From: Bacteroidota bacterium
GTDB taxonomy: Bacteria > Bacteroidota > Bacteroidia > NS11-12g > UBA955
Assembly (NCBI GenBank): GCA_009918425.1
Contig: RGEC01000002.1
Span: 1 to 39,044 of the forward strand
Direction: 5' to 3'
Length of the DNA stretch: 39,044 nucleotides
A model generated the notes under the pieces. The model did no database searches. It was not told the origin of the DNA and saw nothing but the letters and a program-made list of their open reading frames with translations. The position numbers and the translations under genes are program-made. Below, piece after piece: positions 1 through 22,897 of the stretch. Numbering within the stretch: position 1 is the stretch's first letter; each line of letters opens with the position of its first letter.

Positions 1-38
1 AGGCTGTAGAGACGCACAATTGTGCGTCTCTACAGCCT
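1..38. repeat. Perfect 38-bp palindrome with a GTAGAGACG/CGTCTCTAC core. It overlaps the stop codon of the 30..434 gene, so it is probably a terminator hairpin and a member of a dispersed hairpin family.
   Basis: aggctgtagagacgcaca-at-tgtgcgtctctacagcct reads the same on both strands. The same 9-bp arm core recurs at 27843..27870. The window starts at the palindrome edge, so upstream context is unseen. Confidence 0.7.
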
Positions 39-434
39 CCGACACCGTGGCGCCGCACCTTTGTTTTCCAGGATTTCGCCGTAGATGTAAAATATCTTTT
101 CGGGCCCGGTGTTGATGACAATGGCGTATTTTTCAACCGGACCTGGATGCAGGTTGCGGGTATGCAGAGCCAGCACAATGGAATCGATGGTGCCGGGTGC
201 CATGCTGTCTTTTGGGTACAGAGGCACGGTACACTGGCAGCCGGGGTGCACCTGCCGAATCATAAGTCTTTCGCTACCTTCAATGCGGAACAGGAAAACC
301 GCCTCGATGGTGTCGCCCGGGTTGCAGGTACCAAAATGGATGGTATCGCCTTGTAGCGTTTTGATATGCGATTCCTGTGCCTTAACTGTGTAGGCAAAAC
401 ACAGCAGCAACAGAAACGAAAAGGCATTTTTCAT
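30..434 (-). CDS. Secreted DUF1573-like protein (paralogue 1 of 3)
   Basis: ATG start and signal peptide MKNAFSFLLLLCFAYTVKAQ. The HPGCQCTVP motif lines up with the CGC motif of the two neighbouring paralogues. Confidence 0.7.
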   Translation of the reverse strand: MKNAFSFLLLLCFAYTVKAQESHIKTLQGDTIHFGTCNPGDTIEAVFLFRIEGSERLMIRQVHPGCQCTVPLYPKDSMAPGTIDSIVLALHTRNLHPGPVEKYAIVINTGPEKIFYIYGEILENKGAAPRCRRL

Positions 435-440
435 GGGATA

Positions 441-465
441 AGAAAAAGGCCGGATAAACCGGCCT
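441..465 (-). terminator. Rho-independent terminator after the 472..900 gene
   Basis: Stem aggccgg (447-453) and ccggcct (459-465) with loop ataaa. On the minus strand it is followed by ttttct (441-446). Confidence 0.6.
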
Positions 466-471
466 CATATT

Positions 472-900
472 TTAGTTTCCAATAATAACCGACTTGGGTT
501 TTTCGGGCTCTTTTACCACAATACCTGTAATGGTAAGGGTTACATCGCCACCATTGCTGTACACAAAAATATTTTTGGTAAAGTTGCCGGGGCGGCCCGA
601 GCTGTTGTATTCAGCCGTAACCACAGCGGAAGCGCCGGGAGCAATAGGCTCACGGGGCCACTTAGGCGAGGTACAACCACAACTGGCTTGAACGTTGCTA
701 AGCACCAGAGGGTCGGTGCCTGTATTGGTAAATTTGAAGTCGTAACGGGCGATCTGGCCTTCAATTACATTCGCGAAATTGTGGGTGATCTCTTCAAATT
801 TTACTTTGGCATTGCTTGCAGGTGCGGGAGTGGGCTGATCCTGTGCAACAGCACCGCTGAAAGCTGCGGCAAGCAATAGGGAGAAAAGGAGCTTTTTCAT
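472..900 (-). CDS. Secreted DUF1573 domain protein (paralogue 2 of 3)
   Basis: Signal peptide MKKLLFSLLLAAAFSGAVAQ and the motif QASCGCTSPKWP typical of DUF1573. Confidence 0.8.
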   Translation of the reverse strand: MKKLLFSLLLAAAFSGAVAQDQPTPAPASNAKVKFEEITHNFANVIEGQIARYDFKFTNTGTDPLVLSNVQASCGCTSPKWPREPIAPGASAVVTAEYNSSGRPGNFTKNIFVYSNGGDVTLTITGIVVKEPEKPKSVIIGN

Positions 901-922
901 AACGCTTCTATACCTTACAGAA

Positions 923-1336
923 TTACTTCAGTTGGGTTCCGCCACCATTCGGGCTTTCTGTAGAAACAGTTCCGGTGATGGTGAGGTCGGTGGTAGCTCC
1001 GTTATCGAAAGTTACCTTTACAGATTTCTGGAAGAAACCCGGACGACCTTCAGTGCCATAGCTGGCCTTTACCTCACCGGTTTTACCGGGCATCACCGGA
1101 GTTTTGGTGTAGGTGGGTGTGGTGCATCCGCAGCTGGGAGCAGCAGCGGTTATTACTACTGGTGCTTTGCCATTGTTGGTAAATGTGAACGTTACATCAG
1201 CGGGAGGACCCATTTTAACAGTGCCAAAATCGTGGGTGGTTTTATTCCACTTGATGGTTTCGTTTTGCTTAATTCCTGCTACCAGCATGGCGGTGGCAGC
1301 CATGGCAGCAAATCCGAGAGTAAAAATCTTTTTCAT
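923..1336 (-). CDS. Secreted DUF1573 domain protein (paralogue 3 of 3)
   Basis: Start moved from the ORF-track 1405 to MKKIF (ATG at 1334-1336), which gives a proper signal peptide. Motif APSCGCTTPTY. Confidence 0.8.
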   Translation of the reverse strand: MKKIFTLGFAAMAATAMLVAGIKQNETIKWNKTTHDFGTVKMGPPADVTFTFTNNGKAPVVITAAAPSCGCTTPTYTKTPVMPGKTGEVKASYGTEGRPGFFQKSVKVTFDNGATTDLTITGTVSTESPNGGGTQLK

Positions 1337-1515
1337 GGTTTTGTTATTTGGAATAGTAATATCAACAACTGTACCAAAAATTTCCGTACGGGTGAAAATA
1401 TTCAATTACTGCCTTTTTGATTCAAGTCTTTATCCTTATCCAACTTGAAAATAAAAGAGCGTAAAACTGTTTAACAAAAATGGCTAAAAGCCTTATATGT
1501 TTTGGAAATGAGAAT

Positions 1516-1534
1516 TATTGTACTTTTTACAATA
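1516..1534. promoter_or_regulatory. Candidate operator, palindrome TATTGT-N7-ACAATA (copy 1), overlapping the -7 box
   Basis: The sequence is tattgt actttt t acaata. It extends to 7-bp arms, TATTGTA-ctttt-TACAATA. The right half overlaps TATATTTG at 1533-1540. Confidence 0.6.
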
Positions 1535-1550: not shown

Positions 1551-2246
1551 ATGAAAAATCAGCATAAAATTCTGAAACAGTATTTCAATGTTGCGGTATC
1601 AGTCGACAATGTAGTGTTCGGTTTTGATGCCGACGGATTGAAGGTGCTGCTCATTTCGCGTGGCTCGGAACCTTTTACCGGTTCCTGGGCCTTGCCCGGT
1701 GATTTGATTTCACCTGAAATGGACCTGGAATACTCAGCAGAAAAGGTATTGAAACAACTTACAGGTCTGGATCAGGTGTATATGGAACAAATACAGACAT
1801 TTGGCCGTGTTGACAGGCATCCTTTTGGCCGGGTATTTACCATTGCATATTTTGCCTTGATTAAGGTTGAAAATTATCAGCCCCATGCAAATTCATGGGC
1901 CAAAGATGTGGCCTGGTTTAAGGTGTCTGAAATACCTAAACTGCCTTTTGATCACCGTGAAATTTTAGAATATGCGCGCAAGCTTCTGAAAAACCGTATC
2001 CGTACACAGCCCTTGGTATTTGAATTGTTGCCGAAGTATTTTACGCTTACGGAAGTGCAGTTTATTCATGAATCTATTCTGGAGGAAGAATTTGATGTTA
2101 GAAATTTCAGAAAAAAAATTCTTTCAACCGGTATTATTGAGGAAACAGGTAGGTTACAGAAAAACGTAACTCACCGTCCGGCAAAGCTATACCGATATAA
2201 TGCCTCTAAGGCCAAGCAGCTCGGATTTGAAGGAGGGATGTTGTAG
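1551..2246 (+). CDS. Nudix-fold, NrtR/AraR-like transcriptional regulator (degenerate Nudix box plus C-terminal winged-helix region)
   Basis: Start taken at ATG 1551 (MKNQHK) rather than TTG 1518. The Nudix-like segment GDLISPEMDLEYSAEKVLKQLTGL keeps G-x5-E but has lost the REUxEE glutamates. The C-terminal roughly 90 aa look like a DNA-binding domain. Confidence 0.65.
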   Translation: MKNQHKILKQYFNVAVSVDNVVFGFDADGLKVLLISRGSEPFTGSWALPGDLISPEMDLEYSAEKVLKQLTGLDQVYMEQIQTFGRVDRHPFGRVFTIAYFALIKVENYQPHANSWAKDVAWFKVSEIPKLPFDHREILEYARKLLKNRIRTQPLVFELLPKYFTLTEVQFIHESILEEEFDVRNFRKKILSTGIIEETGRLQKNVTHRPAKLYRYNASKAKQLGFEGGML

Positions 2247-3601
2247 TGCGCTTTCCACTATTAATATTGGCAATGCTGTTGCTGGCAGGAGCCTTGAATG
2301 CTCAGCCCGCCAAAGTTATGGTAGTCAAACAAGGCGATAATTGGCGCCTGATGAAGAATGGGTATCCATATTATATTAAGGGCGCAGGTGGTACAGTGCA
2401 CCTGGATTTATTGGTAGAATGTGGTGGAAATACAATAAGGACCTGGGGTGTGGATGATGCCCAAAAAATATTGGATGAGGCACACAGTAAGGGATTAATG
2501 GTGATGTTGGGAATGTGGGTGCAACATGAACGGCATGGCTTTGACTACGACAATAACCTGGCGGTGCAGAAACAAATAAGGTATTTCAAAAGCATTGTGG
2601 ATCAGTTTAAAAATCACCCGGCCCTGCTGATGTGGGGTATAGGCAACGAGGTGGATTTGTTTTACCAGAACACCAAAGTGTGGCACAGCATACAGGCCAT
2701 TGCCAAATATATTCATGAGACGGACCCAAATCACCCTACCTGCACCGTTACTGCTGGATTAGACTCTCTGGAAGTGCAGCATATTAAAGAAAAAGCTCCC
2801 GATATCGATATTTATGGGGTTAATACCTATGGTGACATTGCCGGGGTGCCCAAAAATATTAAAAGGTTCGGCTGGGAAGGACCTTACATGATAACCGAAT
2901 GGGGACCCAATGGACATTGGGAATCGCCGGTAACCCCATGGAATGCGGCCATTGAGCAAAGCAGTAGCGAAAAGGCCATGGTTTATGGCGAACGTTATCA
3001 GAAATACATTCAGTCCGACAGCCAGCAATGTATAGGTTCCTATGTGTTTTTATGGGGCCAAAAGCAGGAGTATACCCTTACCTGGTATGGGCTTTTTACA
3101 AAAGACAACATGGCTACAGAGGCGGTAGACAGGCTGTATCAGGTTTGGACAGGCAAGCCACCAAAAACACCAACACCCACCATTTACCGAATGCTCATTA
3201 ATAATAAGGCAGCGTCTGAAGGCATTGTGCTTGACGCAGGTTCTGTTAATGCTGTTTCCCTGCATGCCGGACTTATTCACTACACCGAGACTGCGGCTCC
3301 GGATGGTGGTTACAAGGTGGTTTGGAAAATGCTGGCTGAAAGTGATGACAAAAAAGCGGGTGGCGACATGGAAAACGAGGCAGCTGAAATAACCCATTTT
3401 ATGAAAAAAGAAGGCGCCGGAACCATGCATTTTAAGGCTCCTCGGCAACCGGGGGGCTATCGGCTTTTTGCCATGGTATATTACCAAAACAAAGTTGCCT
3501 ACAACAACATTCCGTTCAAGGTGGTAGCCGCCTCCAGTGATGACAACAAAGGGGCTGTCAAATTCAAGAAGTTTAACATGGAATCATTCAGCGAGCAATG
3601 A
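2246..3601 (+). CDS. Secreted clan GH-A (beta/alpha)8 glycoside hydrolase with a C-terminal beta-sandwich-like domain, possibly a GH158-like beta-1,3-glucanase
   Basis: GTG start overlaps the regulator stop (TAGTG). Signal peptide MRFPLLILAMLLLAGALNAQ. The motifs WGIGNEVD (acid/base) and ITEWGP (nucleophile) have clan GH-A spacing. The family assignment is not verified. Confidence 0.6.
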   Translation: MRFPLLILAMLLLAGALNAQPAKVMVVKQGDNWRLMKNGYPYYIKGAGGTVHLDLLVECGGNTIRTWGVDDAQKILDEAHSKGLMVMLGMWVQHERHGFDYDNNLAVQKQIRYFKSIVDQFKNHPALLMWGIGNEVDLFYQNTKVWHSIQAIAKYIHETDPNHPTCTVTAGLDSLEVQHIKEKAPDIDIYGVNTYGDIAGVPKNIKRFGWEGPYMITEWGPNGHWESPVTPWNAAIEQSSSEKAMVYGERYQKYIQSDSQQCIGSYVFLWGQKQEYTLTWYGLFTKDNMATEAVDRLYQVWTGKPPKTPTPTIYRMLINNKAASEGIVLDAGSVNAVSLHAGLIHYTETAAPDGGYKVVWKMLAESDDKKAGGDMENEAAEITHFMKKEGAGTMHFKAPRQPGGYRLFAMVYYQNKVAYNNIPFKVVAASSDDNKGAVKFKKFNMESFSEQ

Positions 3602-5451
3602 GGGTAAACTTGTTTAAAATATTCATTCTACTGCCATTGTTGACCATTGTTGGCAAGGGGTTTTCCCAGGATACCGCTAAGCTGGCCAACACGCCGGGCA
3701 TTTTCCCAAAATCCCCCGCTGCTACTTTACAGCGCTTTCAGGTATCCGGTTATTACCGATTCATCACCAATGTACGTCATCTGCAGGAAGGCTACACAGA
3801 CCAGATGAAAACACCCTTCAATATTTTTGTGGGTGATGATAGCCAGATTCCACAACTGCTGCTGAACCTGGGTGGCAGTGTGGCGCCCAACACCCGGTTT
3901 TATACCGATTTTTATCTATGGAGTCCCATGATGGGAGGAGGAATGGTCGAAAATGTGAAAGGGCTTAACTTGGGGGTAAGCCTGACCGGAACCCACGACT
4001 TTGAGCACGGAACCCTGCAAGTTCAGACCGGGGGCATAAACTGGTACGCTCTCACGCCTTTTACTTTCCACTCTAATCCCGGTTTCAACCGATTTACTGT
4101 TTTTGAACGCAACCCCTGGGATCCCATGACCCGAAATGCCATAGACCGCTATCAGACCTTTTACCAAACCGGCGCCATGAATCAGGATACACGTTGGGGA
4201 AGGCAGGCATTTCAGGGTATAATACTGGATGCAAGCAATCTGCCAAACGGATTTTCAGGTACCATGATGTTTGGCAAAACACAGCTAAACGGGGGTATGT
4301 CTCCATTACCCAACCAAAGTGTTGGAGGAAAAATAAGAAACGGCAACGAAAATCGTTATATCAGCTTTAATACATTCAATAATCAGACCTGGTCCGACTC
4401 ATTGCTCAGCAGCCGAATGGGCTTTTCTATTCACACCATGGAGTTTACTTGGAAGAAAAACGGCTGGAAAATGTATGGTGAGACCGGCTTAGGAAAATAT
4501 TACAGTAAAGTTTACAATAAGGGCTGGGGAGAAGCTGTTTCCCTGAAATTGGATATCCCAAATAGAATTTTGTCTCTGCCCGTGCAGATACATTATTTCA
4601 GAATCAGCCCGAAAGTTATCAATAACAGCAGTGTTTTCTGGAACTCGTCCATTCTGGAAGGCAACAACACAGGTGCCGGAAGCGAAGCTCAGCTTGTACT
4701 TGCACCGTTTTCAAGCTCTATGGTTCCAGTAGGCCAGCTAACAAATAACCGCACAGGGGTAGAATTAAACACTGAAACATCGATAGGCCCTTTAAAAGTT
4801 AATGCTGGCTACACAGTGGCCAAAGAGCTGGAACGTATAGCCACCCAGATTACGTATGCCCATCCGGTCAACAATTTGGCTGTATCCAGGTTCTGGCGGT
4901 GGGCATTCCCTTCAGGTGTGGGCCCCTATGCCAATCTCACCAAAGTGTATCGTGGGGTTTTTGAATCGGTAGATATATTGGATGTTGATGCGCAGGATAA
5001 ACCCATGAAAGACAAATATTTCAATACGGCCGAATTGCAGATGAAATACAAAACGCGTTTTCTGGGCAGAGACCTCTTTGTTAATTACCTGGGAAACTAT
5101 GCTTCGGTGCAGCATTTTATGGCTCCTTTCACCGTGCTAACCGAAAAAGCCTACCTCAGAACCTATTATCACCAGTTGGAGGCCTACCTGAGACTCTCGC
5201 AGAATCTGGTATGGTGTAATTATGCCGGGGCTGAGCGTGTGGTAGCCAATTACGATACCCGAACGGATGCCATTAGCCGCAGGCCTAAGAATCAGGAAGG
5301 GTATGCCATTGCCACCGGTTTTGACATTGAAATGAGCAAAGGTGCCGGTTTATACATAAGACAGCGTAAAATGCAGTACCGAGATCGCAGTTATAGCAAG
5401 GATCGTTACAAGGGCTGGGAAACTACCGTTGAACTTAAAATATTCTTTTGA
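3598..5451 (+). CDS. Predicted plug-less outer-membrane beta-barrel protein, uncharacterised family (OMP-A)
   Basis: ATGA overlap with the upstream gene and a signal peptide ending GFSQ. The sequence is rich in alternating aromatic/polar and Gly-containing stretches. It ends in ELKIFF (terminal Phe). No TonB box or plug-like segment is visible. Confidence 0.55.
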   Translation: MRVNLFKIFILLPLLTIVGKGFSQDTAKLANTPGIFPKSPAATLQRFQVSGYYRFITNVRHLQEGYTDQMKTPFNIFVGDDSQIPQLLLNLGGSVAPNTRFYTDFYLWSPMMGGGMVENVKGLNLGVSLTGTHDFEHGTLQVQTGGINWYALTPFTFHSNPGFNRFTVFERNPWDPMTRNAIDRYQTFYQTGAMNQDTRWGRQAFQGIILDASNLPNGFSGTMMFGKTQLNGGMSPLPNQSVGGKIRNGNENRYISFNTFNNQTWSDSLLSSRMGFSIHTMEFTWKKNGWKMYGETGLGKYYSKVYNKGWGEAVSLKLDIPNRILSLPVQIHYFRISPKVINNSSVFWNSSILEGNNTGAGSEAQLVLAPFSSSMVPVGQLTNNRTGVELNTETSIGPLKVNAGYTVAKELERIATQITYAHPVNNLAVSRFWRWAFPSGVGPYANLTKVYRGVFESVDILDVDAQDKPMKDKYFNTAELQMKYKTRFLGRDLFVNYLGNYASVQHFMAPFTVLTEKAYLRTYYHQLEAYLRLSQNLVWCNYAGAERVVANYDTRTDAISRRPKNQEGYAIATGFDIEMSKGAGLYIRQRKMQYRDRSYSKDRYKGWETTVELKIFF

Positions 5452-7178
5452 TGAAATATAGCATGATACATATTGCAAAAAATATAATAGTGTTACTGTT
5501 CGGAATACCCGGACTGATAATTGCTCAAAGCACCCCAAAATTTTCTGTAACAGGCGGTGCACGTTCTCTTTTATCCAACGCTGAAATTTCGGTTAAAGAC
5601 AGTGTTCCGGATAATGTAACTGCCAGAAAAAATGCCGGTGGATACGCTTTGATGGATTTGGGTTTCAATATCAGGCCCAACCAGAACACCGAAATTATGG
5701 GTATGATCCGCATAAACAATAGGTTTGGTGGATTCTGGGGTGCAGGGGTATCCTTTGATGTAAGACAATTGTGGCTAAAGGGTATCATTGCCGATCGGGT
5801 TCGTTATCAGCTGGGAGATATCAACCTGAAGCAAACCCCATTTACTTTCTGGAACCACGATGAGGATAACCGCATTCAGTTGCCCGCGGTATTTGGCTTG
5901 CAAAGAGATATTGTAAATTATGAGACATTTTATGTTCCCAATACCTGGAGGCAGCAGGGGGCAGCCATGAATTTTGGGCTGGAATCGGGTAAAATGAAGT
6001 CTGAATGGAATTTTCATTCCTACCTCAATCGTTTGAATGCCACCAATTTTGGAAGTCAGCCGGAAAGACTGCATTTTGGAAGCACCGCAAACTGGATTTT
6101 TCATAAAAATCTGACAGTGGCCTATAACCTAAGCCGTGTTTTTGATGTAAAAGAAACCGCACTTAGCAATATTCGCTTTCAAAACACTGTGAATACTGCC
6201 TCTTGGGAATATAATCAATTGTTGAAAGGCCGGCTGATAACCCTGGGCGGAGAGGCGGGTAATTCTTCTTACCGCTGGTTGCAGGATACTGCTGCGCCAC
6301 ACCTCCAGGATTATTTTGTGCATGCTTTTCTTCGCATAGGCAATAAAGAAAAACACTGGTCTGTAGAAGGAGGTTACCTAAATGTGGGACCGGATTTCAG
6401 AAGTGTTGCTGCGCAGTCAAAAAGACTGGATGTGGGTGCGCAGCCTATGTTTTATAATAGGTACACCCAATTGCAGCTCGATAGACCCTTGAATCTGCTG
6501 GATTACACAACCAACACAGCATTGTTTAGAAACGGCATCAGTACCAAGCTACAGGCGTACAATCCCATACTCAACAATGTGATGCCCTATGGTATGGCTA
6601 CATTTAACCGATCGGGATTGTATATGAAATCCAAATGGCAACATACCAAAAAAATTGTGACCGCAGAAGTACAATATTACAAACTGTCTGAAATATTGGG
6701 GCAGGGTACCTCGGAACTAAAAAAATTCAGAATGACACAGGCCCATTTGAACTGGGATATAGGTAAAATGTTAGGCTATAAAAAGCAATGGAAACTTCAG
6801 GTATCTGCCTGCCAGCAGCAGACCCTCCGCAACAGCACAAGGAATTATGAAGTTGTAAAATTAAATTCGATGCAGTTGGGTGCCGGGATGGAATCCGAAA
6901 TCATGAGCAGCATTGACATCTTGGCGGGGTATACCATGTTACAGGGTAAGGGCAATGAAATGCTTGCCGCAAGAAATGGCTACACAGAAGTAATCGACTT
7001 CACGGGATACAACGCAAACCTGCAAAACAATGCTGCTGCTGCCGGACTCAGGGTTCGATTCAGCAACAAAACCTACCTTTCTCTGCTGTATCAGCGTATG
7101 AATTACCGCAACCTATTACAGCCCTATCAGAATTATACAATCGGTCAGTTTCAGGCCATATACAACATGACTTTTTAA
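5448..7178 (+). CDS. Predicted plug-less outer-membrane beta-barrel protein, distant paralogue of OMP-A (OMP-B)
   Basis: ATGA overlap with OMP-A and a signal peptide ending IIAQS. It ends in IYNMTF. It shares the motif (L/Q)TPFTF with OMP-A (nt about 4054-4068 and 5835-5849). Confidence 0.55.
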   Translation: MMKYSMIHIAKNIIVLLFGIPGLIIAQSTPKFSVTGGARSLLSNAEISVKDSVPDNVTARKNAGGYALMDLGFNIRPNQNTEIMGMIRINNRFGGFWGAGVSFDVRQLWLKGIIADRVRYQLGDINLKQTPFTFWNHDEDNRIQLPAVFGLQRDIVNYETFYVPNTWRQQGAAMNFGLESGKMKSEWNFHSYLNRLNATNFGSQPERLHFGSTANWIFHKNLTVAYNLSRVFDVKETALSNIRFQNTVNTASWEYNQLLKGRLITLGGEAGNSSYRWLQDTAAPHLQDYFVHAFLRIGNKEKHWSVEGGYLNVGPDFRSVAAQSKRLDVGAQPMFYNRYTQLQLDRPLNLLDYTTNTALFRNGISTKLQAYNPILNNVMPYGMATFNRSGLYMKSKWQHTKKIVTAEVQYYKLSEILGQGTSELKKFRMTQAHLNWDIGKMLGYKKQWKLQVSACQQQTLRNSTRNYEVVKLNSMQLGAGMESEIMSSIDILAGYTMLQGKGNEMLAARNGYTEVIDFTGYNANLQNNAAAAGLRVRFSNKTYLSLLYQRMNYRNLLQPYQNYTIGQFQAIYNMTF

Positions 7179-7181
7179 AAT

Positions 7182-8180
7182 ATGAAATCAATACTCAGTA
7201 TATTCATCGGCATTGTTTTGTTTACATCTTGTAAGCGAGACAATAACCAGTTCGAAGGCCCCAGCCTGCAGGATCTTAACGGCCCGTTTGGCATGGTAAA
7301 ACCATTTACTGCCAGCAAAACAGCAGTGGATTTTTCCAAAGGGGAAATTGTAACCTTTGCAGCCGAGTTTACCAAGCAGTGCAACTGGACCATAACCATC
7401 TATGGAGATCTGAGCAAGGCACGTAAAATCATTACCGGTAAATCCCGGCAGATAGATGCCGTAAATGGAATCTGGAATGGCACAACTACTGTGCTTCCTG
7501 CTTTCAGAACAGAGCCTTGCCGCGCTGTACTTAAAATTGATGGAGTAACAGATAGTTTCACCTTGAATATCGGTATCAATGGGTTACGAATACCCCAGGG
7601 ATTGATGATTGCAGACTTTGAAGCCGGACTTAGTCCTAAATGGAACACATTCATACAATCGGGGGCCAATATGGATTTTAAGGTGAAAAGTGATGCCTTT
7701 TCGGTGAAGGGAAATTACCTGAATATGGCAGGCACCGTGACGTGGGACTGGCTTATCGGCCTGATAGATTTTCCGGCATCGGCATATGGAGCAAATACGT
7801 TTACAGTAAGCAATATTCCTGAAGATGTGTATTTCAATTGTCTTATTTATGGCGATCCCAATGTAGCAAATCCCAGCAGGGTTCTGTTTCAGTTTAAGGA
7901 AGATGATAACAGCAACAATGTTTTTGATGTTGCAGCGGATGATCAGTTTGACAAAGAAATTATTGTGAATTGGCAGGGATGGAAACTCGTATCCTTTAAA
8001 TACAGCGATTTGATTCACCTGGTGAATGGGCAGCCCGCTCCTAACAATGGCAATAATCGACATAACCCCAATCGTGTGGTGACCATTTCTATGCTGCACC
8101 TAGCGAATCCGTCCATGGGTGCCGGGAGCACAAAAATCGATTACCTTATTTTTACTGAGAAAACGCCCCTGGAACTGTAA
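7182..8180 (+). CDS. Lipoprotein with an Ig-like N-terminal part and a CBM-like C-terminal domain (putative surface glycan-binding protein)
   Basis: Lipobox VLFTSC. The C-terminal segment runs from IADFEAGLSPKWNTF to STKIDYLIF, which is typical of jelly-roll CBM or CIA30-like modules. Confidence 0.5.
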   Translation: MKSILSIFIGIVLFTSCKRDNNQFEGPSLQDLNGPFGMVKPFTASKTAVDFSKGEIVTFAAEFTKQCNWTITIYGDLSKARKIITGKSRQIDAVNGIWNGTTTVLPAFRTEPCRAVLKIDGVTDSFTLNIGINGLRIPQGLMIADFEAGLSPKWNTFIQSGANMDFKVKSDAFSVKGNYLNMAGTVTWDWLIGLIDFPASAYGANTFTVSNIPEDVYFNCLIYGDPNVANPSRVLFQFKEDDNSNNVFDVAADDQFDKEIIVNWQGWKLVSFKYSDLIHLVNGQPAPNNGNNRHNPNRVVTISMLHLANPSMGAGSTKIDYLIFTEKTPLEL

Positions 8181-8866
8181 TGAAATATCCTTTTTTAATG
8201 GGGATCTTGCTGTGTGCTGCAGCTTCGGCTTCAGGCCAGAATACAGCTGTAGATAACATGGATACGGTTCAGATTACCGGAAACAAGTTGCGGTTTAAAA
8301 AACAGCAGTTATATGATGAGTCAAACGGTTCGGTACCCGCTCAAATCGGCGGGTTTAGTGCATTGGGTGTTTTTGATGAATCAATGGGTTCTGAAGTATG
8401 GTTTTCCAAAGAAAAGGCATGCGTATCGGTAAGTAAATCTGACCGTCTTCCCTATACAGGTCAATTTTGTCTGCACGCCCAATGGGATAAAATTGCAGGT
8501 GGCTGCAAGTGGATTGGGATGGGCATTGGCTGGGACAACTGGCAACCCAAGGATATTTCTTCGATCGTGGATTCAGCTGCCATACAAATAATGTTGCGTT
8601 CTGAAACCGACACCCTGAAAACCCTGCCGCTCGCTCTGGCCTTGGAAGATTACACAGGAGCCCAGTGTTTTATCGGCTTTTCACCCCGTTATCTGATGGG
8701 CAATAAAATCATGCCCGGGGGCTGGACCGCGGCCATTATACCGCTGTCTGAGTTTCCGTTTGAAAGGTTTAATGCCAGTGCTGCCATGATCAAACAGTTT
8801 ATCATACAGTTTGAGGCAGACGGCAATGTATATATGGATGATATTCGTTTAATCCGAAAAAAGTAG
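8180..8866 (+). CDS. Secreted CBM-like (jelly-roll) protein
   Basis: TAATG overlap with the upstream gene and a signal peptide. It has a Trp-rich core (WIGMGIGWDNWQP) and a C-terminal FEADGNVYMDDIRLI, typical of CBM11/CIA30-like domains. Confidence 0.45.
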   Translation: MKYPFLMGILLCAAASASGQNTAVDNMDTVQITGNKLRFKKQQLYDESNGSVPAQIGGFSALGVFDESMGSEVWFSKEKACVSVSKSDRLPYTGQFCLHAQWDKIAGGCKWIGMGIGWDNWQPKDISSIVDSAAIQIMLRSETDTLKTLPLALALEDYTGAQCFIGFSPRYLMGNKIMPGGWTAAIIPLSEFPFERFNASAAMIKQFIIQFEADGNVYMDDIRLIRKK

Positions 8867-8870
8867 GTCA

Positions 8871-11120
8871 ATGAAAAACCCTCTAAGTATAGGTTTAACC
8901 TGTTTTCTTATTGTATTTAATACAATAAATGCGCAAACACCCATAGAAAAGAAGGCAGATTCCCTGCTTTCAGTCATGAATATTGAAGCAAAAATCGGTC
9001 AGATGTCTCAAATCGACCTGGGTGTACTGTGCAAAGGAAAAATTTGTGAATTGCAGGATCCCCTTGCACTTGACACGGCCAAATTGCGACTGGCATTCAG
9101 CAAATACAAGGTGGGCTCTGTGTTAAACTGCGGTTGCGGTTTTCATGCCCTTGCGCGTGAGCGCTGGATCAGTATTATTGACAGCATACAGCAGGCAAAC
9201 CGCCTGTTTGCGGGCCATGATATACCCGTGCTGTATGGTATAGATGCGATTCATGGTGCCAACTATACCATCGGGGCTACCTTGTTTCCTCAGCAGATAG
9301 GACAGGCAGCCACATGGAATCCGGATCTGGTGAAGGCTGCTGCAAAGATTACGGCTTACGAAACGCGTGCTTCGGGCATCCCCTGGAATTTTTCACCGGT
9401 GCTGGATTTGGCCCGACAGCCGCTCTGGTCGAGGTTTTTTGAAACCTATGGGGAAGACGTTTATCTGGCAACCCGCATGACAACAGCCTGTATCGAAGGA
9501 TACCAGGGAGAAAAAATAGGAGAATTGCAGGTAGCTGCCTGTATGAAACATTTTTTGGGCTATAGCTATCCGCTGAGTGGTAAAGATAGAACCCCCGCCT
9601 GGATTGGTGACCGCGAACTTAGGGCATACTTTCTGCCCACCTTTCAGGAGGCCATTCGCCTAAAGGCCAAGACAGTGATGATCAATTCCGGTGAAATTAA
9701 TGGTACGCCCGTTCACGCAAACCCCAAAATTTTAACAGGGCTGCTTCGCGATGAGCTGGGTTTTGACGGGGTGGCCGTCACGGACTGGGAAGACATTTAT
9801 AAACTGCATACCCTGCACCGTGTGGCCCCTTCATTGCGCGATGCTGTTAAAATGGCGGTTATGGCCGGTATAGACATGAGCATGACCCCTAATGATTTTC
9901 AGTTTAATGAACTGTTGCTGAATCTGGTAAAATCGGGGGAAGTGCCAGAAAGTCGAATCGATGTTTCTGTGAAAAGAATTCTGAAACTCAAGCTGGAGCT
10001 GGGCATTGAAAAATGGGACGCCGATTATGTCCGTAACTATTATCCGATTTTTGCATCGCCTGATTTTGCGTCGGTAGCAACGGCAACTGTTTCAGAATCT
10101 CTGACCCTGCTGAAAAATGAACTCCGTAATACCACTTCAGATGAGGCGGTGTTGCCATTAAAACAGCAGGACAAGGTTCTGGTTTTTGGGAATGCTGCCA
10201 ACAGCATAAAAATGCTGAACGGGGCCTGGTCACAAACCTGGCTGGGTCAGGATGAAAGGTATGTAGATTCAACCAAACCTACCATTTTATCGGCATTAAA
10301 ATTTTTGGCAACAGATAAAATTATTTTTGCCAATGCAGCTGATCCGAAATCGTGCAGGCGTGCACTCAAAAGTAAGCCAAGTGTGGCGATTTTGTGTCTG
10401 GGCGAAACCCCTGCCACAGAAATTCCCGGAAACATCAATCAACTTGAATTGCCTGTAGATGAAAACACGCGAAATCTGGCAAAGCAGCTAAAGGCCATGA
10501 ATGTGCCTGTGGTATTGGTTTTGTGCCTTGGTCGTCCCCGCATCATTACCGAGTGGGCTGAAGCCGCATCCGCCGTCTTGCACACCTACCTTCCAGGCCA
10601 CGAAGCAGCGCCGGTCATTGCGTCTGTTTTGTATGGGAATATCAATCCTTCCGGAAAATTGCCGTTTACCTACCCCCGATACTGCGGTGATATTGTACAT
10701 TATGACCATAAGCGTACCGAAGACAATGATGTGAATTTTGGGGATAAAGGCTACAATCCTTTGTATGATTTTGGTTTCGGCCTGTCTTATACCCGCTTTC
10801 AATATTCAGATCTGCAAGTGAAGGCAGCGAAAGACACTTTTTTCATTAGTGTTATGGTGAAAAATACAGGAAGTAGGGCCGGGAAGGAAGTTGTGCAGGT
10901 GTATTACCGCGATGAATATGCAGCCGTGACACCTTCCGTAAAGAAACTTTGCGGGTTTATGAAAATATATGCAACAGCAGGCGAAACAAAAAGGGTACGG
11001 TTCGCTATACCTGCAATGCAACTTGGAGATATCGGTGCCGATTTGAAGCCCTTTAGGGCAGAAGGGGAATTGAAGTTTTTTATCGGAACGGAAACAAAAC
11101 AAATACAATACAATCCATGA
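8871..11120 (+). CDS. Glycoside hydrolase family 3 beta-glucosidase
   Basis: Signal peptide plus the motifs KHFLGYS and GFDGVAVTDWEDI (GH3 nucleophile region). The length of 749 aa includes a C-terminal FnIII-like domain. Confidence 0.9.
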   Translation: MKNPLSIGLTCFLIVFNTINAQTPIEKKADSLLSVMNIEAKIGQMSQIDLGVLCKGKICELQDPLALDTAKLRLAFSKYKVGSVLNCGCGFHALARERWISIIDSIQQANRLFAGHDIPVLYGIDAIHGANYTIGATLFPQQIGQAATWNPDLVKAAAKITAYETRASGIPWNFSPVLDLARQPLWSRFFETYGEDVYLATRMTTACIEGYQGEKIGELQVAACMKHFLGYSYPLSGKDRTPAWIGDRELRAYFLPTFQEAIRLKAKTVMINSGEINGTPVHANPKILTGLLRDELGFDGVAVTDWEDIYKLHTLHRVAPSLRDAVKMAVMAGIDMSMTPNDFQFNELLLNLVKSGEVPESRIDVSVKRILKLKLELGIEKWDADYVRNYYPIFASPDFASVATATVSESLTLLKNELRNTTSDEAVLPLKQQDKVLVFGNAANSIKMLNGAWSQTWLGQDERYVDSTKPTILSALKFLATDKIIFANAADPKSCRRALKSKPSVAILCLGETPATEIPGNINQLELPVDENTRNLAKQLKAMNVPVVLVLCLGRPRIITEWAEAASAVLHTYLPGHEAAPVIASVLYGNINPSGKLPFTYPRYCGDIVHYDHKRTEDNDVNFGDKGYNPLYDFGFGLSYTRFQYSDLQVKAAKDTFFISVMVKNTGSRAGKEVVQVYYRDEYAAVTPSVKKLCGFMKIYATAGETKRVRFAIPAMQLGDIGADLKPFRAEGELKFFIGTETKQIQYNP
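8909..8927. promoter_or_regulatory. Candidate operator, palindrome TATTGT-N7-ACAATA (copy 2), inside the signal-peptide codons of the GH3 gene
   Basis: The sequence is tattgt atttaat acaata. It extends to TATTGTA-tttaa-TACAATA. Confidence 0.45.
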
Positions 11121-11968
11121 GCATGTTCAAGTCAACATCAATAATTACCACAGCAGGATTGCTGTTATTGGGATTAATTACAACCTGTAAGCAATCAGAT
11201 CCACCAACTACCCGCAACCGAATAATACGTGATTCCGGCGATTTTGTGTTTTCGGGATATGGGTGGAATATTAAGTCAAGTATTACACCGGTAGGGCCCG
11301 GGCCTAACTACTTTAATGGAAGTGACAGTATGGTCTGGGTGGATAAGGATGGGCTATTGCATTTGCGTATTGCTTATATCAACGGGAAATGGCAAAGCAG
11401 TGAAGTGATTTGCACGGAAAATATGGGCTATGGAACCTATGTGTTTTGCCTTGAAAGCAATGTGGCGAATATCAATGAACGGATAGTACTGGGTTTGTTT
11501 ACCTGGGATGACAATTCTTTCAAAGAGCAGGCCAACAGTGAAGTGGATATTGAATTCTCAAAGTGGTTTAAGGCCAGTGACAGCCTGACATTGACTTATT
11601 CTGTTCAGCCGGTAATATTCGATAATCCTATAGCTTACAGTGAGCGTTCCTTCAAACCCCAGATGCAGGTGGCTAAGCTAAAGCAACCCAGTACACATGT
11701 ATTTAACTGGCAGGCCGACGAAATAACCTGGAATTCATACACAGGTGCTGTTTATCCGGGTGGCAATCCCATTGCTTCTTGGAATTTTAACCTGAATAAC
11801 CCTGTAAGAACCAAAATAGAAGGTGGACGTGTATCAAATCCCATTATTATACCTGCGCCCGGCGCCACTACCCGCGCCAGAATGAATCTGTGGTTATTGA
11901 ATGGATTACCCCCATCAGATGGTAAACCATTCGAGGTAGTTGTTCGCTCGTTTGAATACATTCCGTAA
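11117..11968 (+). CDS. GH16-like beta-glucanase lipoprotein
   Basis: ATGA overlap with GH3 and lipobox LITTC. The motif SEVDIEFS matches the GH16 catalytic E-x-D-x-E. Its size of about 280 aa fits a single jelly-roll domain. Confidence 0.55.
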   Translation: MSMFKSTSIITTAGLLLLGLITTCKQSDPPTTRNRIIRDSGDFVFSGYGWNIKSSITPVGPGPNYFNGSDSMVWVDKDGLLHLRIAYINGKWQSSEVICTENMGYGTYVFCLESNVANINERIVLGLFTWDDNSFKEQANSEVDIEFSKWFKASDSLTLTYSVQPVIFDNPIAYSERSFKPQMQVAKLKQPSTHVFNWQADEITWNSYTGAVYPGGNPIASWNFNLNNPVRTKIEGGRVSNPIIIPAPGATTRARMNLWLLNGLPPSDGKPFEVVVRSFEYIP

Positions 11969-11976
11969 ACAAAAAA

Positions 11977-11993
11977 GGAGGCACATGGCCTCC
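11977..11993. terminator. Bidirectional terminator hairpin between convergent genes
   Basis: Stem ggaggc and gcctcc with loop acatg, flanked by an A-run upstream and ctcttt downstream. Confidence 0.55.
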
Positions 11994-12021: not shown

Positions 12022-13686
12022 TTACTTGTTGAGAATGATCTGTTCGCGGTAGGTTTGTTCACCTGCAGTGATTACCAGCATATAAACACCGGCTTTTAAT
12101 GCGCCCATGTCTATGGTTGTATTCACAGCATTGCCGGTGAAGGCTGATCCGTAAACTTTTTGGCCAAGAATGTCGCTAATGCTTATGTTTCCGGATACGC
12201 CTGAATTGAACACTGCAGATACGCTGATATTTGACTGAGCAGGATTGGGATATACACTGATTCCATGAGTGCTCAATGGTGTATTGCCCATGCTTTGGCA
12301 GGTTCCGCAATATTCCCAGCAAAAAGCGGGCAGGGTTGTATCGGCCTTTGCAGTAAGCAATCGATTGGTGAAGCTGCCGGTAGTTTTGGTGCAGCTTTCG
12401 CCACCTTTGAAAGTTTCTTTCACTGCCCATCCGTCAAGTGTAAATAAATATTCAAAAGTATCAAGTGCATTCAAGGGAAGACTGATTTCGTATATTTTAT
12501 CATTGTCGGCGTCTGTCATGGGATTGCAGGTGCCGCACCAGCCATTGAATGAACCGTTTAGGTTTACTGCAGTGAAAGTGTTTTTATAGGAACTCATATC
12601 TACTTTGAAAGTCACATTGGCTTTAGGCTTGGTGTTGGCGCAACTTTCGCATGATTCAAAACAAACTGCATTCAAAACAGTAGCACCGTTGATTTTGAGG
12701 AAACGATTGGTGTAAATACCGGTAGTTTTTGTACAGGAAGATCCGGATTTCATTTTTTCTGCCACATTCCAGCCGTCCAGGGTAAATAGGTATTCGATAG
12801 AATCCTGAGGTAGGGGCAGTTTCACTTCCCAAACACCATTTTTGTCTGCATCATCCATAGGGTTACAGTTACCGCACCATCCGTTGAAAGAGCCATTTAC
12901 GTATACAGTGGTAAAGGATCCACCTGTGTATTTGCTCATATCTACCTTGAAGGTTACATCGTTGGTACACTCGCTGCAACTACCCCAGCATACATTAGGA
13001 AGAACCTTGGAGCCGGTAACTTTCAGGAAGCGATTGGTGTAGCCCCCTGTGGTTTTGGTGCAGGTGCTGCCGGAAGTTAGTTTTTCATCACCTGCCCAGT
13101 TGTCAATAGAGAATTTGTATTCTATCGAGTCGCGGGTAATGTCGAAAGTACCCGAATAAATTTTATCGCCATCTGCATCGGTAAGCTGATTGCTGTTGCC
13201 GGACCAACCATTAAAATCACCGCTAACATACACATTGGTGTATGAACCTGAATACTGTTTCATGTTAACATTAAAAGTGATTGATTTTTTGGTAACCGAA
13301 GAACAAGCTGCACAGCTTTCAAAACAGACCTTAGCCAGTGTCACATCACCGGTCAGTTTTACAAAACGGTTGGTATAACCGCTTGTGGTTTTGGTGCATG
13401 ATGATCCTTGAGTAAGGTTTTCCTGCTTGCTCCAGTTATCCATGGTAAATTTATACTCAATGGAGTCATCGGTAATGTTGATTGTGCCTTCCCAAACACC
13501 ATCTGCATCAGCATCACTAAGCGCATTGGAATTGCCGGACCAGCTGTTGAAATTGCCACTCACGTAAACGGTAGTAAAGGAACCACCGGTAAACTGATTC
13601 ATGTCTACCTTAAAGGTTACTTTCTTTTGAGCCATCAAGCCGCCCAATGAAGCGACCATGAGCATCAGAGTAAATATTTTTTTCAT
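12022..13686 (-). CDS. T9SS-secreted protein with four tandem roughly 110-aa carbohydrate-binding-like (CBM20/48 or E-set-like) Cys-containing modules
   Basis: Start moved to MKKIFTL (ATG at 13684-13686). There are four repeats of VTFKVDM..VYVSGNFNGW..DADGD..EYKF..D.W..SCTKTT..YTNRF..C.ESC..C. The C-terminus, ISVYPNPAQSNISVS...GVYMLVI...IILNK, resembles a T9SS sorting domain. Confidence 0.8.
   Translation of the reverse strand: MKKIFTLMLMVASLGGLMAQKKVTFKVDMNQFTGGSFTTVYVSGNFNSWSGNSNALSDADADGVWEGTINITDDSIEYKFTMDNWSKQENLTQGSSCTKTTSGYTNRFVKLTGDVTLAKVCFESCAACSSVTKKSITFNVNMKQYSGSYTNVYVSGDFNGWSGNSNQLTDADGDKIYSGTFDITRDSIEYKFSIDNWAGDEKLTSGSTCTKTTGGYTNRFLKVTGSKVLPNVCWGSCSECTNDVTFKVDMSKYTGGSFTTVYVNGSFNGWCGNCNPMDDADKNGVWEVKLPLPQDSIEYLFTLDGWNVAEKMKSGSSCTKTTGIYTNRFLKINGATVLNAVCFESCESCANTKPKANVTFKVDMSSYKNTFTAVNLNGSFNGWCGTCNPMTDADNDKIYEISLPLNALDTFEYLFTLDGWAVKETFKGGESCTKTTGSFTNRLLTAKADTTLPAFCWEYCGTCQSMGNTPLSTHGISVYPNPAQSNISVSAVFNSGVSGNISISDILGQKVYGSAFTGNAVNTTIDMGALKAGVYMLVITAGEQTYREQIILNK
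12291..13626 (-). repeat. Four tandem coding repeats of about 330 bp inside the T9SS protein gene
   Basis: Repeat boundaries were read from the translation and are approximate. Confidence 0.7.
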
Positions 13687-13710
13687 TTTCAAAAGATAAT
13701 TAGTTAACAA

Positions 13711-13718
13711 CAAAGATA
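13711..13718 (-). promoter_or_regulatory. -7 promoter element (TATCTTTG on the minus strand) for the T9SS repeat-protein gene
   Basis: The plus strand reads CAAAGATA, about 25 nt upstream of the ATG at 13686. Confidence 0.4.
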
Positions 13719-13918: not shown

Positions 13919-14821
13919 TTAGCGTTTTAATACAAATGATCTGAAGTCTGCCGTGTACGACCCAACCACCCCAAACGCTCCTGGCACATTTCCCATTATT
14001 TTACCCGGAAGCTGACTAATGCTCTGTTGTTGCCAGATGTGGGCATTGCGGGTGTTGTAGAAATTGAACAGGGATTTGCTGATATTTTCCAGGTGAAATT
14101 CAATACTTACAGGCCTTTCAGCAGGGGTTTTCAGCAGCGGGTCTGAAGTATATAAAACCATATATTTATTAACCCCGTTGAAGGTAGCATCAGAGAAAAG
14201 CAATTCTCTTGAACTGTAATTGTTGTAATCATTGTCTGTTGCAGCCAGGTCATCCGAATAGAGGGAAATAATATCTTTTTGCAGGAAGCTGTCCGATAAC
14301 TTACCCGTATAATCATATATATACCTGTAGGCTGTTTTATAGAGGTAGCAGCGATAATAGTTTTCAAAAGCGGCATCATCATCAAACCTCACGGCTACTG
14401 AAAAAGCGCGGCCTATGCCGGGTATAAGTTGTCGTATTGTATCAAAATTTTTAATAAAAACTTGCTTGGGTATAATTTCTGATATATCAAATTTGTAGCC
14501 GTTCACATAGCCCCTGAAAACAAAGGTGTCGCCTGATTTCAGGGAGTTGGAACCAAACAGGTGAATACCGTTTCCGGTATATATGGTGGTATCTTTGGTT
14601 GTATTTGATTTTATTATTGAGAAAAATGCATTGCCTATGGGCATGTCTTTGCTGCCAAAGGGCGCGGTAAGCCTGCAGTCTGCAGTTAAAATACTGTCTG
14701 GGGTAATGAAGCAATGCACTGCAGGTAATGGCGTTTTCAGGTAATCAGAATTGTACGGAATTTCTTTTATGCATCCGCATAAAATCAACACGCTTGCAGT
14801 ATAAAATACGAGGATTCTCAA
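13919..14821 (-). CDS. DUF4249-like lipoprotein, partner of the upstream TonB-dependent receptor
   Basis: Lipobox LILCGC and a 4-nt overlap with the receptor gene. This is the typical receptor/DUF4249 pairing in Bacteroidota. Confidence 0.6.
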   Translation of the reverse strand: MRILVFYTASVLILCGCIKEIPYNSDYLKTPLPAVHCFITPDSILTADCRLTAPFGSKDMPIGNAFFSIIKSNTTKDTTIYTGNGIHLFGSNSLKSGDTFVFRGYVNGYKFDISEIIPKQVFIKNFDTIRQLIPGIGRAFSVAVRFDDDAAFENYYRCYLYKTAYRYIYDYTGKLSDSFLQKDIISLYSDDLAATDNDYNNYSSRELLFSDATFNGVNKYMVLYTSDPLLKTPAERPVSIEFHLENISKSLFNFYNTRNAHIWQQQSISQLPGKIMGNVPGAFGVVGSYTADFRSFVLKR

Positions 14822-22113: not shown

Positions 22114-22163
22114 GCGGTTACCAAATTTAGTGAAAAAGCATGATAATTTCAAACCGGCAGCCA

Positions 22164-22778: not shown

Positions 22779-22868
22779 TGTTCAAAGTAACCACGGAATG
22801 TGTACACGGCAAAGTCATTTTTCGCAGCATCGGTATCTAAATCTGCGCAATGGTTAAAAATCATTACC

Positions 22869-22897
22869 TTTGATGCTATCAAATGATACTATCAAAT
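22869..22897. repeat. Tandem 13-bp direct repeat, each copy carrying a TGAT-N3-ATCA palindrome, abutting the Fic start codon
   Basis: gatgctatcaaat (22872-22884) is followed by gatactatcaaat (22885-22897). The first copy extends to TTTGATgctATCAAA. The Fic ATG is at 22896. Confidence 0.6.

Follow-up and report, generated by a model that had tools for sequence, protein, structure and literature searches.

Five co-oriented genes of Cytophaga hutchinsonii, chu_1276–chu_1280, are co-induced by cellulose and were named an atypical polysaccharide utilisation locus (PUL) by the authors who described them (Zhang et al. 2025, PMC12016534). As they report, growth on cellulose requires chu_1276, chu_1277, chu_1279 and chu_1280, and the chu_1276 mutant also grows less well when glucose is low (PMC12016534); chu_1280 is an endoglucanase that earlier work placed in the periplasm. 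CHU_1279, a cellulose-binding protein of the outer membrane, contributes more through its presence than through its binding; the species can use cellulose without its two SusC/SusD homologues; and the published occurrence of the cluster, which includes no SusD-type partner, is limited to two close relatives of C. hutchinsonii (PMC12016534). The stretch analysed here, referred to as the window, comprises 39,044 nucleotides of a Bacteroidota contig (RGEC01000002.1), and the system in question is its plus-strand gene array at 1551–11968, encoding two outer-membrane barrels (OMP-A and OMP-B), two predicted binding proteins (X1 and X2), enzymes of glycoside hydrolase (GH) type and a regulator. Profile comparison shows OMP-A, OMP-B and X1 to be homologous to CHU_1276, CHU_1277 and CHU_1278 and encoded in the same order. 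The array probably represents a SusCD-independent beta-1,3-glucan utilisation operon of a freshwater Flavobacteriales bacterium, built on an outer-membrane module of the chu_1276–chu_1279 type and directed at a laminarin or chrysolaminarin type of substrate, possibly also at mixed-linkage glucan.

Like the Cytophaga cluster (PMC12016534), the array combines a barrel, a second barrel, a two-domain beta-sandwich lipoprotein, a protein resembling a carbohydrate-binding module (CBM) and a co-oriented glycanase with a signal peptide, and it has no SusD-type partner. It differs from that cluster in its enzymes, which are GH158, GH3 and GH16-like proteins suited to soluble beta-1,3-glucan whereas Cytophaga has a GH9 for crystalline cellulose, in its CBM30-like fourth protein, and in its regulator, of the Nudix/AraR type with a predicted palindromic operator in place of a sigma factor with extracytoplasmic function (ECF). 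Also the hosts differ, the one being planktonic Flavobacteriales and the other soil Cytophagales. The trio of enzyme families, the accessory beta-sandwich glycan-binding proteins and the dedicated regulator are shared with the beta-1,3-glucan loci of Bacteroides (BuGH158–GH16–GH3; Dejean et al. 2020, PMC7157763). Unlike those loci, the window array has no SusC/SusD, its GH16 is highly divergent and its regulator is of the Nudix type. A plug-less barrel within a sugar-utilisation operon, presumed to allow TonB-independent passage of oligosaccharides, is found also in the glycoporins, such as maltoporin LamB, ScrY and chitoporin ChiP. The glycoporins are trimeric, with 16–18 strands and 350–450 residues, whereas the window has two different barrels of about 575–620 residues and roughly 20–25 strands, without sequence similarity to glycoporins, and barrels of its type are always paired with two binding proteins.

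A sequence-only reading of this DNA had inferred an uptake or capture architecture different from the Sus paradigm. The homology of OMP-A, OMP-B and X1 to CHU_1276–CHU_1278 of an atypical PUL bears out this inference. The architecture is not without precedent, and less novel than had been implied, because the related system of C. hutchinsonii has already been described and genetically tested. The novelty lies in an atypical PUL of the Cytophaga type that is directed at beta-1,3-glucan, has other enzymes, another fourth component and another regulator, and is widespread in aquatic Flavobacteriales. The papers found to name CHU_1276, CHU_1277 or CHU_1278 were all on C. hutchinsonii and contained no description of the aquatic beta-glucan cassette, and no account of it was found by literature searches on GH158, laminarin, SusC and porin. 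A Formosa 'porin' highly expressed on laminarin was discarded as unrelated, belonging to a nitrogen-metabolism cluster (PMC6246565).

The barrel module and its relatives

Neither a SusC-type TonB-dependent transporter (TBDT) nor an adjacent SusD lipoprotein, both of which belong to canonical Sus-like PULs, was found in the array. None of the eight products matched Plug or TonB_dep_Rec in Pfam and NCBIfam, even at E = 10, and none matched the SusD/RagB family in Pfam. The other canonical feature, co-localised glycoside hydrolases with a dedicated regulator, is present, as GH158, GH3, the GH16-like protein and the Nudix/AraR regulator occur in one array. OMP-A gave no Pfam, NCBIfam or PDB sequence matches, also when its family profile was used, and OMP-B gave only a weak Pfam match to OMP_b-brl (0.018), no NCBIfam matches, and no PDB matches with sequence or family profile. 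Each has several hundred relatives, all labelled as hypothetical proteins of Bacteroidota. The possibility that the two barrels are paralogues was rejected (hhalign probability 0.4%).

AlphaFold2 models, constructed from alignments of about 40 sequences and of moderate confidence, presented both proteins as barrels ending in a C-terminal Phe. The OMP-A model had a predicted local distance difference test score (pLDDT) of 76, a predicted template-modelling score (pTM) of 0.76 and about 22–25 strands from residue 45 onwards; with some 20 residues between the signal peptide and the first strand, an N-terminal plug has no space there. The OMP-B model (pLDDT 74, pTM 0.71) had at least 20 strands, and its residues 17–130, which are conserved, were modelled too poorly to show whether a plug is present. 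In Foldseek searches OMP-A matched generic barrels only, with template-modelling (TM) scores of about 0.4 and ZnuD, Cir, chitoporin and maltoporin among the matches, and OMP-B showed weak likeness to TBDT barrels at about 0.3, the top matches including SusC BT1762. For both barrels TBDTs, porins, MtrB and ushers all scored alike, between 0.25 and 0.43. The claim that the transporter slot holds two mutually unrelated barrels, without Plug, TonB-receptor or SusD signatures, is thus upheld by Pfam, NCBIfam, PDB profiles and AlphaFold2/Foldseek; a divergent SusC/TBDT or SusD encoded at 3598–7178, which would have spoken against it, was searched for with hidden Markov models and structure comparison, and none was found.

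The most conserved stretches of the barrels are residues 145–202, 340–384 and 422–446 of OMP-A (about 4030–4935 in the window) and 17–130 of OMP-B (about 5500–5840), and these are also the ones that AlphaFold2 models worst. They include the aromatic- and amide-rich motifs ERNPWDP, QLTNNRxG, RFWRWxFP and FGGFWGxGVTFDVRQLW, and might form loops inside the barrel, as a gate or lining of the pore.

The link to Cytophaga was established through a protein (P0454) that the OMP-A profile matched at 2.7e-70 and that belongs to the same 90% cluster as the NCBI entry 'CHU_1276 family cellulose-binding protein [Cytophaga sp.]'. A first cluster look-up had returned 'hypothetical protein' names only, and no NCBIfam model matches even the Cytophaga CHU_1276 orthologue, the family name coming from the source annotation only. 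In the locus of this protein (L096), genes for products of 749, 606, 391 and 375 aa precede a GH9 gene. W89, F92, F180, Y253, F256 and F343, the residues mutated in the published CHU_1279 (also 375 aa), are all present in the 375-aa product. The OMP-A profile matched the 749-aa CHU_1276 orthologue over positions 32–624 (E = 8.7e-79; 27% pairwise identity), the OMP-B profile the 606-aa CHU_1277 orthologue (E = 1.1e-102; 30%), and the X1 profile the 391-aa CHU_1278 orthologue (E = 2.9e-36; hhalign 99.7% over 324 columns; 24%). The window thus has a CHU_1276-family barrel, a CHU_1277-family protein directly downstream and a CHU_1278-type third gene. The fourth position is not occupied by a CHU_1279 homologue: X2 as a divergent CHU_1279 was rejected (hmmsearch E = 0.12, hhalign 2.3%), the two having only the gene position in common.

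An exhaustive profile search of 1.84 billion representatives placed the OMP-A family in 318 clusters at 50% identity, 128 of them at E ≤ 1e-30. Distant members keep the order barrel–barrel(–X1) beside other enzymes, namely GH5 (L091), a PL1 pectate lyase (L093) and GH9 (L096). In L093 (243–10063), OMP-A, OMP-B and X1 are followed by a homologue of the CHU_1279 C-domain (hhalign 98.1%), a T9SS (type IX secretion system) protein and a PL1 with a T9SS tail, which suggests a pectin version of the same machine. The fourth slot appears to vary, plausibly with the substrate, because X2 is unrelated to CHU_1279 while L093 has a CHU_1279 C-domain homologue. Four of the ten longest OMP-A relatives have an N-terminal extension of 180–190 residues, in which CBM4_9 was detected in three; none of the ten showed a Plug domain. 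By the domain-fusion argument, the CBM4_9 fused to these relatives points to OMP-A-type barrels working with carbohydrate.

CBM4_9 is fused to the barrel N-terminus in the distant relatives P0425, P0440 and P0443 and in locus L091. In outer-membrane barrels with an even number of strands, this end normally lies in the periplasm, which makes the placement of the module puzzling.

Related loci were collected by a profile-guided scan of metagenome contigs, a genome scan and two look-ups, giving 87 loci with OMP-A 39–92% identical to that of the window. They were retrieved through OMP-A similarity and include some near-duplicates, so that the counts describe the OMP-A subfamily. The order GH158–OMP-A–OMP-B–X1–X2 was kept in these freshwater and marine loci. 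OMP-B was adjacent in all 80 testable loci, X1 was present in 70 of 70 and GH158 was upstream of OMP-A in 74 of 74, so that synteny of the barrels with GH genes in other Bacteroidota, which had been put forward as a check, was found. X2 was present in 61 of 65 testable loci, and three of the four misses were artefacts of ORF starts (ORF, open reading frame). GH3, the Nudix regulator and the CBM48-like T9SS protein were usually near the module, with varying position and orientation. The closest relatives were metagenome-assembled genomes (MAGs) of freshwater Flavobacteriales, five of them found in the scan of genome contigs and none of them a cultured carrier, and the distant loci included TARA ocean contigs and genomes labelled as Salibacteraceae. 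Marine cassettes also include a GH16 of canonical type that bears a T9SS sorting domain, a GH30 and a major facilitator superfamily (MFS) transporter, and have a sodium:solute symporter (SSF) between GH158 and OMP-A. No SusC or SusD was found in the Pfam-annotated contexts of the related loci.

Gene layout, enzymes and regulation

The array consists of eight long ORFs, in place of the ten genes counted previously (Table 1). They are tightly packed on one strand with gaps of at most 4 nt, as had been described. The stop/start overlaps TAGTG at 2244–2248 (regulator and GH158), ATGA at 3598 and 11117, and TAATG at 8178–8182 are present as listed in the sequence-only reading, but the ATGA placed at 5448 is not: the junction there reads TTGATG, with the stop codon TGA at 5449–5451 and a start codon that is either ATG at 5451 or TTG at 5448. 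At two junctions the genes do not overlap but are separated by 3 nt (7178/7182) and 4 nt (8866/8871). A hairpin of six GC-rich pairs, 9 nt past the stop codon of the final gene, has a convergent gene on its other side. It had been reported as the only terminator; it exists and is the sole one at a gene end, but its statistical support is weak, since terminator-like patterns inside the genes of the region were at chance level (13 found versus 11.4 expected in a pattern scan). The hairpin is therefore distinguished by its position and not by statistics. A scan for sigma-70 promoters gave scores below chance, with a model that is uninformative for Bacteroidota. Because of the close packing and a promoter-proximal operator common to the genes, a single operon would be the natural reading of the array.

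Table 1. Features of the window, with positions, strand and the evidence or context of each.
Feature	Position	Strand	Evidence or context
Three tandem paralogues, each with a single DUF1573 (Ig-like) domain	30-1405	-	directly upstream of operon
Perfect palindrome TTGTACTTTTTACAA, predicted operator of the Nudix/AraR-type regulator	1518..1532	.	19 nt before regulator ATG
Transcription regulator, Nudix + NrtR/AraR winged-helix DNA-binding domain	1551..2246	+	Pfam
GH158 beta-1,3-glucanase, type-I signal peptide	2246..3601	+	PDB matches, catalytic motifs
OMP-A, 617 aa, plug-less outer-membrane beta-barrel, CHU_1276 family	3598..5451	+	AlphaFold2, profile
OMP-B, about 575 aa, second outer-membrane beta-barrel, CHU_1277 family	5451..7178	+	AlphaFold2, profile
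X1, two-domain lipoprotein, CBM11-like C-terminal half, CHU_1278 family	7182..8180	+	lipobox, weak CBM_11, profile
X2, CBM30-like beta-sandwich protein	8180..8866	+	Pfam scores of homologues
GH3 exo-beta-glucosidase, type-I signal peptide	8871..11120	+	Pfam
Divergent GH16-like lipoprotein, lichenase-type active site	11117..11968	+	homologue alignment, profile
Hairpin GGAGGC-ACATG-GCCTCC, then CTCTTTG	11977..11993	+	likely operon terminator, between convergent genes
Secreted protein, four CBM48-like repeats + T9SS C-terminal sorting domain	12022..13713	-	Pfam
Two one-mismatch operator copies, TTGTAAAAAAAACAA and TTGTTAAACTTACAA	13734..13771	.	just upstream of CBM48/T9SS gene
TonB-dependent receptor (878 aa; CarboxypepD_reg, Plug) overlapping DUF4249 protein (300 aa)	13919-17454	-	domains
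Kelch-repeat protein (415 aa) overlapping exonuclease VII large-subunit gene by few bases	20917-23852		

Every product after the regulator has a signal sequence at its N-terminus, with lipoboxes in X1 (LFTSC) and the GH16-like protein (LITTC). Also the motifs on which the enzymes had been named are present: GIGNEVD and ITEWG in GH158, GFDGVAVTDWEDI in GH3 and EVDIEF in the product of the last gene. The proposed beta-1,3-glucan type of enzyme set thus held, comprising a true GH158, a GH3 over the Pfam cut-offs and a remote relative of GH16 with an invariant ExDxE motif.

The GH158 aligned end to end with GH158(Pro) (PDB 9oro; E = 4.6e-95, 41% identity) and is closer to this processive enzyme than to BuGH158 (PDB 6pal; E = 9e-66). 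The glutamates of clan GH-A are kept, GNEVD and ITEWG aligning with the NE and TEW motifs of the template. Most of the GH158 homologues sampled (every fourth) carry AQ-type signal peptides. GH158 and GH3 are predicted to be periplasmic because both have a signal peptide only, without a lipobox or T9SS tail. In this the window GH158 is unlike BuGH158, which is reportedly a surface lipoprotein. The characterised GH158(Pro) is processive, releases laminaribiose and acts best on lightly branched laminarin; it also cleaves mixed-linkage (oat) beta-glucan, but not cello-oligosaccharides (PMC13195107).

Both the N- and the C-terminal domain of the GH3 were above the Pfam gathering scores (Glyco_hydro_3 4e-68, 230.6 bits with a cut-off of 27; GH3_C 2.4e-35, 122.7 bits with a cut-off of 31), and a Fn3-like domain was also matched (4e-11). 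The nearest NCBIfam model was an exo-beta-1,3/1,6-glucosidase (8e-115, under its cut-off).

The last gene is predicted to encode a surface endo-beta-glucanase. In 23 homologues the lipobox Cys24, followed by KQSDPP, and the motif NSEvDiEF (E142, D144 and E146) are invariant. The family profile matched the Bacillus 1,3-1,4-beta-glucanases 1mac and 1byh at E = 1e-3, and in this alignment the motif falls on their catalytic EIDIEF. PF00722 was matched weakly by six of the 23 homologues (best 8e-6) and the window protein itself had no Pfam match, PF00722 included, and for these reasons the protein was labelled GH16-like and not GH16.

The suggestion of two CBM-like proteins in the transporter slot agreed with a CBM11-like domain in X1 and a CBM30-like X2. 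The window proteins themselves gave nothing usable in Pfam, NCBIfam or PDB searches. The lipobox Cys17 of X1 is invariant in 27 homologues, 14 of which matched CBM_11 weakly (best 1.8e-4), and X1 is predicted to be a glycan-binding partner of the barrels. Two homologues of X2 passed the Pfam CBM30 cut-off of 27 (L074 with 30.5 bits and L013 with 28.4 bits); marine homologues have a fused CBM9 domain, and the homologue in L006 gave weak SGBP_B_XBD/CBM30 matches. X2 as a copy of the CBM of X1 was rejected (hhalign 0.7%).

The NrtR/AraR family consists of Nudix-related transcription regulators and includes the Bacteroides arabinose regulator AraR. As in that family, the window regulator joins a Nudix domain to a C-terminal winged helix (NrtR_WHD 6e-24, AraR_C 8.5e-13, NUDIX 1.7e-7), belongs to a sugar-utilisation locus and has a palindromic site at the promoter. 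Unlike its relatives it sits in a beta-glucan locus, and with 155 bits against the NCBIfam NtrR-like model it is far under the equivalog cut-off of 400.

The palindrome TTGTACTTTTTACAA is adjoined by TATATTTG at 1533–1540, which we take to be a possible Bacteroidota -7 box. Among the related loci, TTGTA-N4-6-TACAA occurred 83 times in 1.41 Mb, against about 4–8 occurrences expected from base composition. The palindrome was placed 30–83 nt upstream of the first operon gene, either the regulator or GH158, and also in divergent GH3/GH158 spacers and upstream of CBM48/T9SS genes. Both this enriched palindrome at promoters and the Nudix–winged-helix fusion agree with membership in the NrtR/AraR family. 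TTGTA-N5-TACAA is predicted to mark the promoters of a regulon and to be the operator of the Nudix regulator. The window has six matches with at most one mismatch versus 1.9 expected.

Some operator-like sites lie within genes. The palindrome TTGTATTTAATACAA at 8911–8925 is 40 nt into GH3, with the same offset in L001 and L008, and a one-mismatch copy at 7229–7243 is 47 nt into X1; such sites might act in internal regulation or simply be codons that are conserved. In one lineage (L006:7764–8507) the Nudix regulator is replaced by an ECF sigma factor directly upstream of GH158, which resembles the ECF control of chu_1276 in Cytophaga.

Proposed mechanism and competing readings

In the mechanism proposed for the operon, the Nudix/AraR-type regulator would bind TTGTA-N5-TACAA at the promoter, presumably as a repressor, and let go on a sugar effector. 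The GH16-like lipoprotein would nick the glucan at the cell surface, where X1, X2 and the T9SS-secreted CBM48-repeat protein may hold the chains. Glucan chains or oligosaccharides would then cross the outer membrane via the plug-less OMP-A and OMP-B, without a TonB-gated plug, as suggested by the CHU_1276/CHU_1277 homology, the fusion of CBM4_9 to OMP-A relatives and the strict gene linkage. In the periplasm GH158 and GH3 would cut the chains to glucose, which might enter the cell by a transporter encoded elsewhere; in related loci an SSF symporter or MFS gene is found inside or beside the cassette.

Several observations weigh against this proposal. The AlphaFold2 models are only of moderate quality, and the conserved N-terminal 110 residues of OMP-B might form an unusual occluding domain, while a wide plug-less barrel would leak unless filled by loops or partners. 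Also the channel role of CHU_1276 and CHU_1277 is itself deduced from mutant phenotypes. X2 has no sequence relation to CHU_1279, the TBDT/DUF4249 pair 2 kb downstream on the opposite strand makes an ordinary transporter nearby possible, and the locus counts overstate independence because of the OMP-A-based retrieval and the near-duplicates. Furthermore, CBM11, CBM30 and the lichenase-like motif would fit a mixed-linkage or beta-1,4-glucan too. The main uncertainty is whether the barrels are channels or a scaffold, and the secondary one concerns the exact glucan.

The barrels with X1 and X2 could form a surface scaffold for glycan-binding proteins and enzymes, the sugars entering through another TBDT or porin, for example the receptor at 13919–17454. 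Such a scaffold is unlikely, even if the study of CHU_1279 proposes complex assembly or stabilisation, the presence of the protein outweighing cellulose binding (PMC12016534), and many of the neighbouring proteins are T9SS substrates that require outer-membrane anchoring. The pair of TBDT (CarboxypepD_reg, Plug) and DUF4249 protein, just downstream of the operon, is kept in the close relatives L003, L004, L008 and L009; however, it is on the opposite strand, was detected in these four of the 87 loci, many of which have too little flanking sequence, and is absent from the fully annotated contexts L006, L007, L088, L093 and L096. Two large barrels would also be a costly anchor for two small proteins, and the low-glucose defect reported for the chu_1276 mutant points to permeation (PMC12016534). 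Very improbable is a canonical PUL in disguise, in which OMP-A, OMP-B or both would be extremely divergent SusC proteins with an unrecognisable plug and X1 a divergent SusD. The matches of OMP-B to SusC BT1762 and other TBDT barrels, and of OMP-A to ZnuD and Cir, would be compatible with it, but since porins, MtrB and ushers score equally, at TM 0.25–0.43, they reflect a generic barrel likeness; TBDT matches were also reported for the CHU_1276 model (PMC12016534). Residues 17–130 of OMP-B, highly conserved but unmodelled, leave some space for this alternative in that barrel. Against it stand the strands of OMP-A starting at residue 45, the absence of Plug and TonB_dep_Rec from the Pfam and NCBIfam matches at E = 10, the PDB profile searches without matches, and the N-terminal domains detected among the ten longest OMP-A relatives, which were CBM4_9 only and never Plug. 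The SusD fold is an all-helical tetratricopeptide repeat (TPR) structure, which X1, as a CBM11-like beta-sandwich lipoprotein, does not resemble.

The same architecture might instead serve a substrate of plant or cyanobacterial origin, either mixed-linkage beta-1,3/1,4-glucan or cello-oligosaccharides; this assignment is distinctly unlikely. Beta-1,4- and mixed-linkage glucans are ligands of the CBM11 and CBM30 families, Bacillus lichenases give the best alignment with the last enzyme, and the homologous Cytophaga module serves cellulose. While GH158(Pro) cleaves oat beta-glucan as well, it is most efficient on laminarin, and the characterised GH158 enzymes considered here act on beta-1,3-linked glucans (PMC13195107). 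The window also has no GH5, GH9 or other cellulase, and the marine cassettes adjoin GH30 and canonical GH16, enzymes listed in marine laminarin loci.

If the array is a SusCD-independent beta-1,3-glucan operon, the aquatic cassette gains a genetically validated relative in chu_1276–chu_1279, and the question of how cellulose chains pass the outer membrane in Cytophaga gains a soluble-substrate counterpart that is far easier to assay. The predicted operator defines a regulon open to direct test. Modularity appears to be the design principle, as the core of barrel, barrel and lipoprotein is fixed and the fourth, CBM protein and the enzymes vary. A more tentative extension, which may well prove too wide, is that barrel, barrel, lipoprotein and variable CBM protein give Bacteroidota a second general machine for glycan import, independent of TonB/SusCD and exchanged among substrates (GH158 for beta-1,3-glucan, GH9 or GH5 for cellulose, PL1 for pectin), which would carry substantial uncounted laminarin turnover in lakes and oceans. 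The turnover would be uncounted because PUL prediction keyed on SusC/SusD cannot see the module; PUL catalogues and in-situ estimates of glycan use have SusC/SusD as their marker, and a beta-glucan cassette free of SusCD would be missed.

Neighbouring genes

The protein encoded convergently behind the hairpin matched CBM_48 (4e-28, four stretches) and Por_Secre_tail (9e-13) in Pfam. In 36 of the 87 loci a relative of it lies no more than 10 kb from the module, and in marine loci the operator precedes such relatives. Because two one-mismatch operator copies precede the gene also in the window, it probably belongs to the regulon, and the protein is probably a cell-surface glycan binder. CBM48 repeats are of the glycogen/starch type, and they are found here beside a beta-glucan cassette, as also in L045, L054, L062, L074 and others; either beta-glucan is what these CBM48-like repeats bind, or the regulon extends to alpha-glucan as well.

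The TBDT/DUF4249 pair represents a SusC-like receptor with a non-SusD partner. Beside the Kelch-repeat and exonuclease VII genes, on the opposite strand, there is a gene for a Fic-domain protein, and this region appears to be unrelated to the operon.

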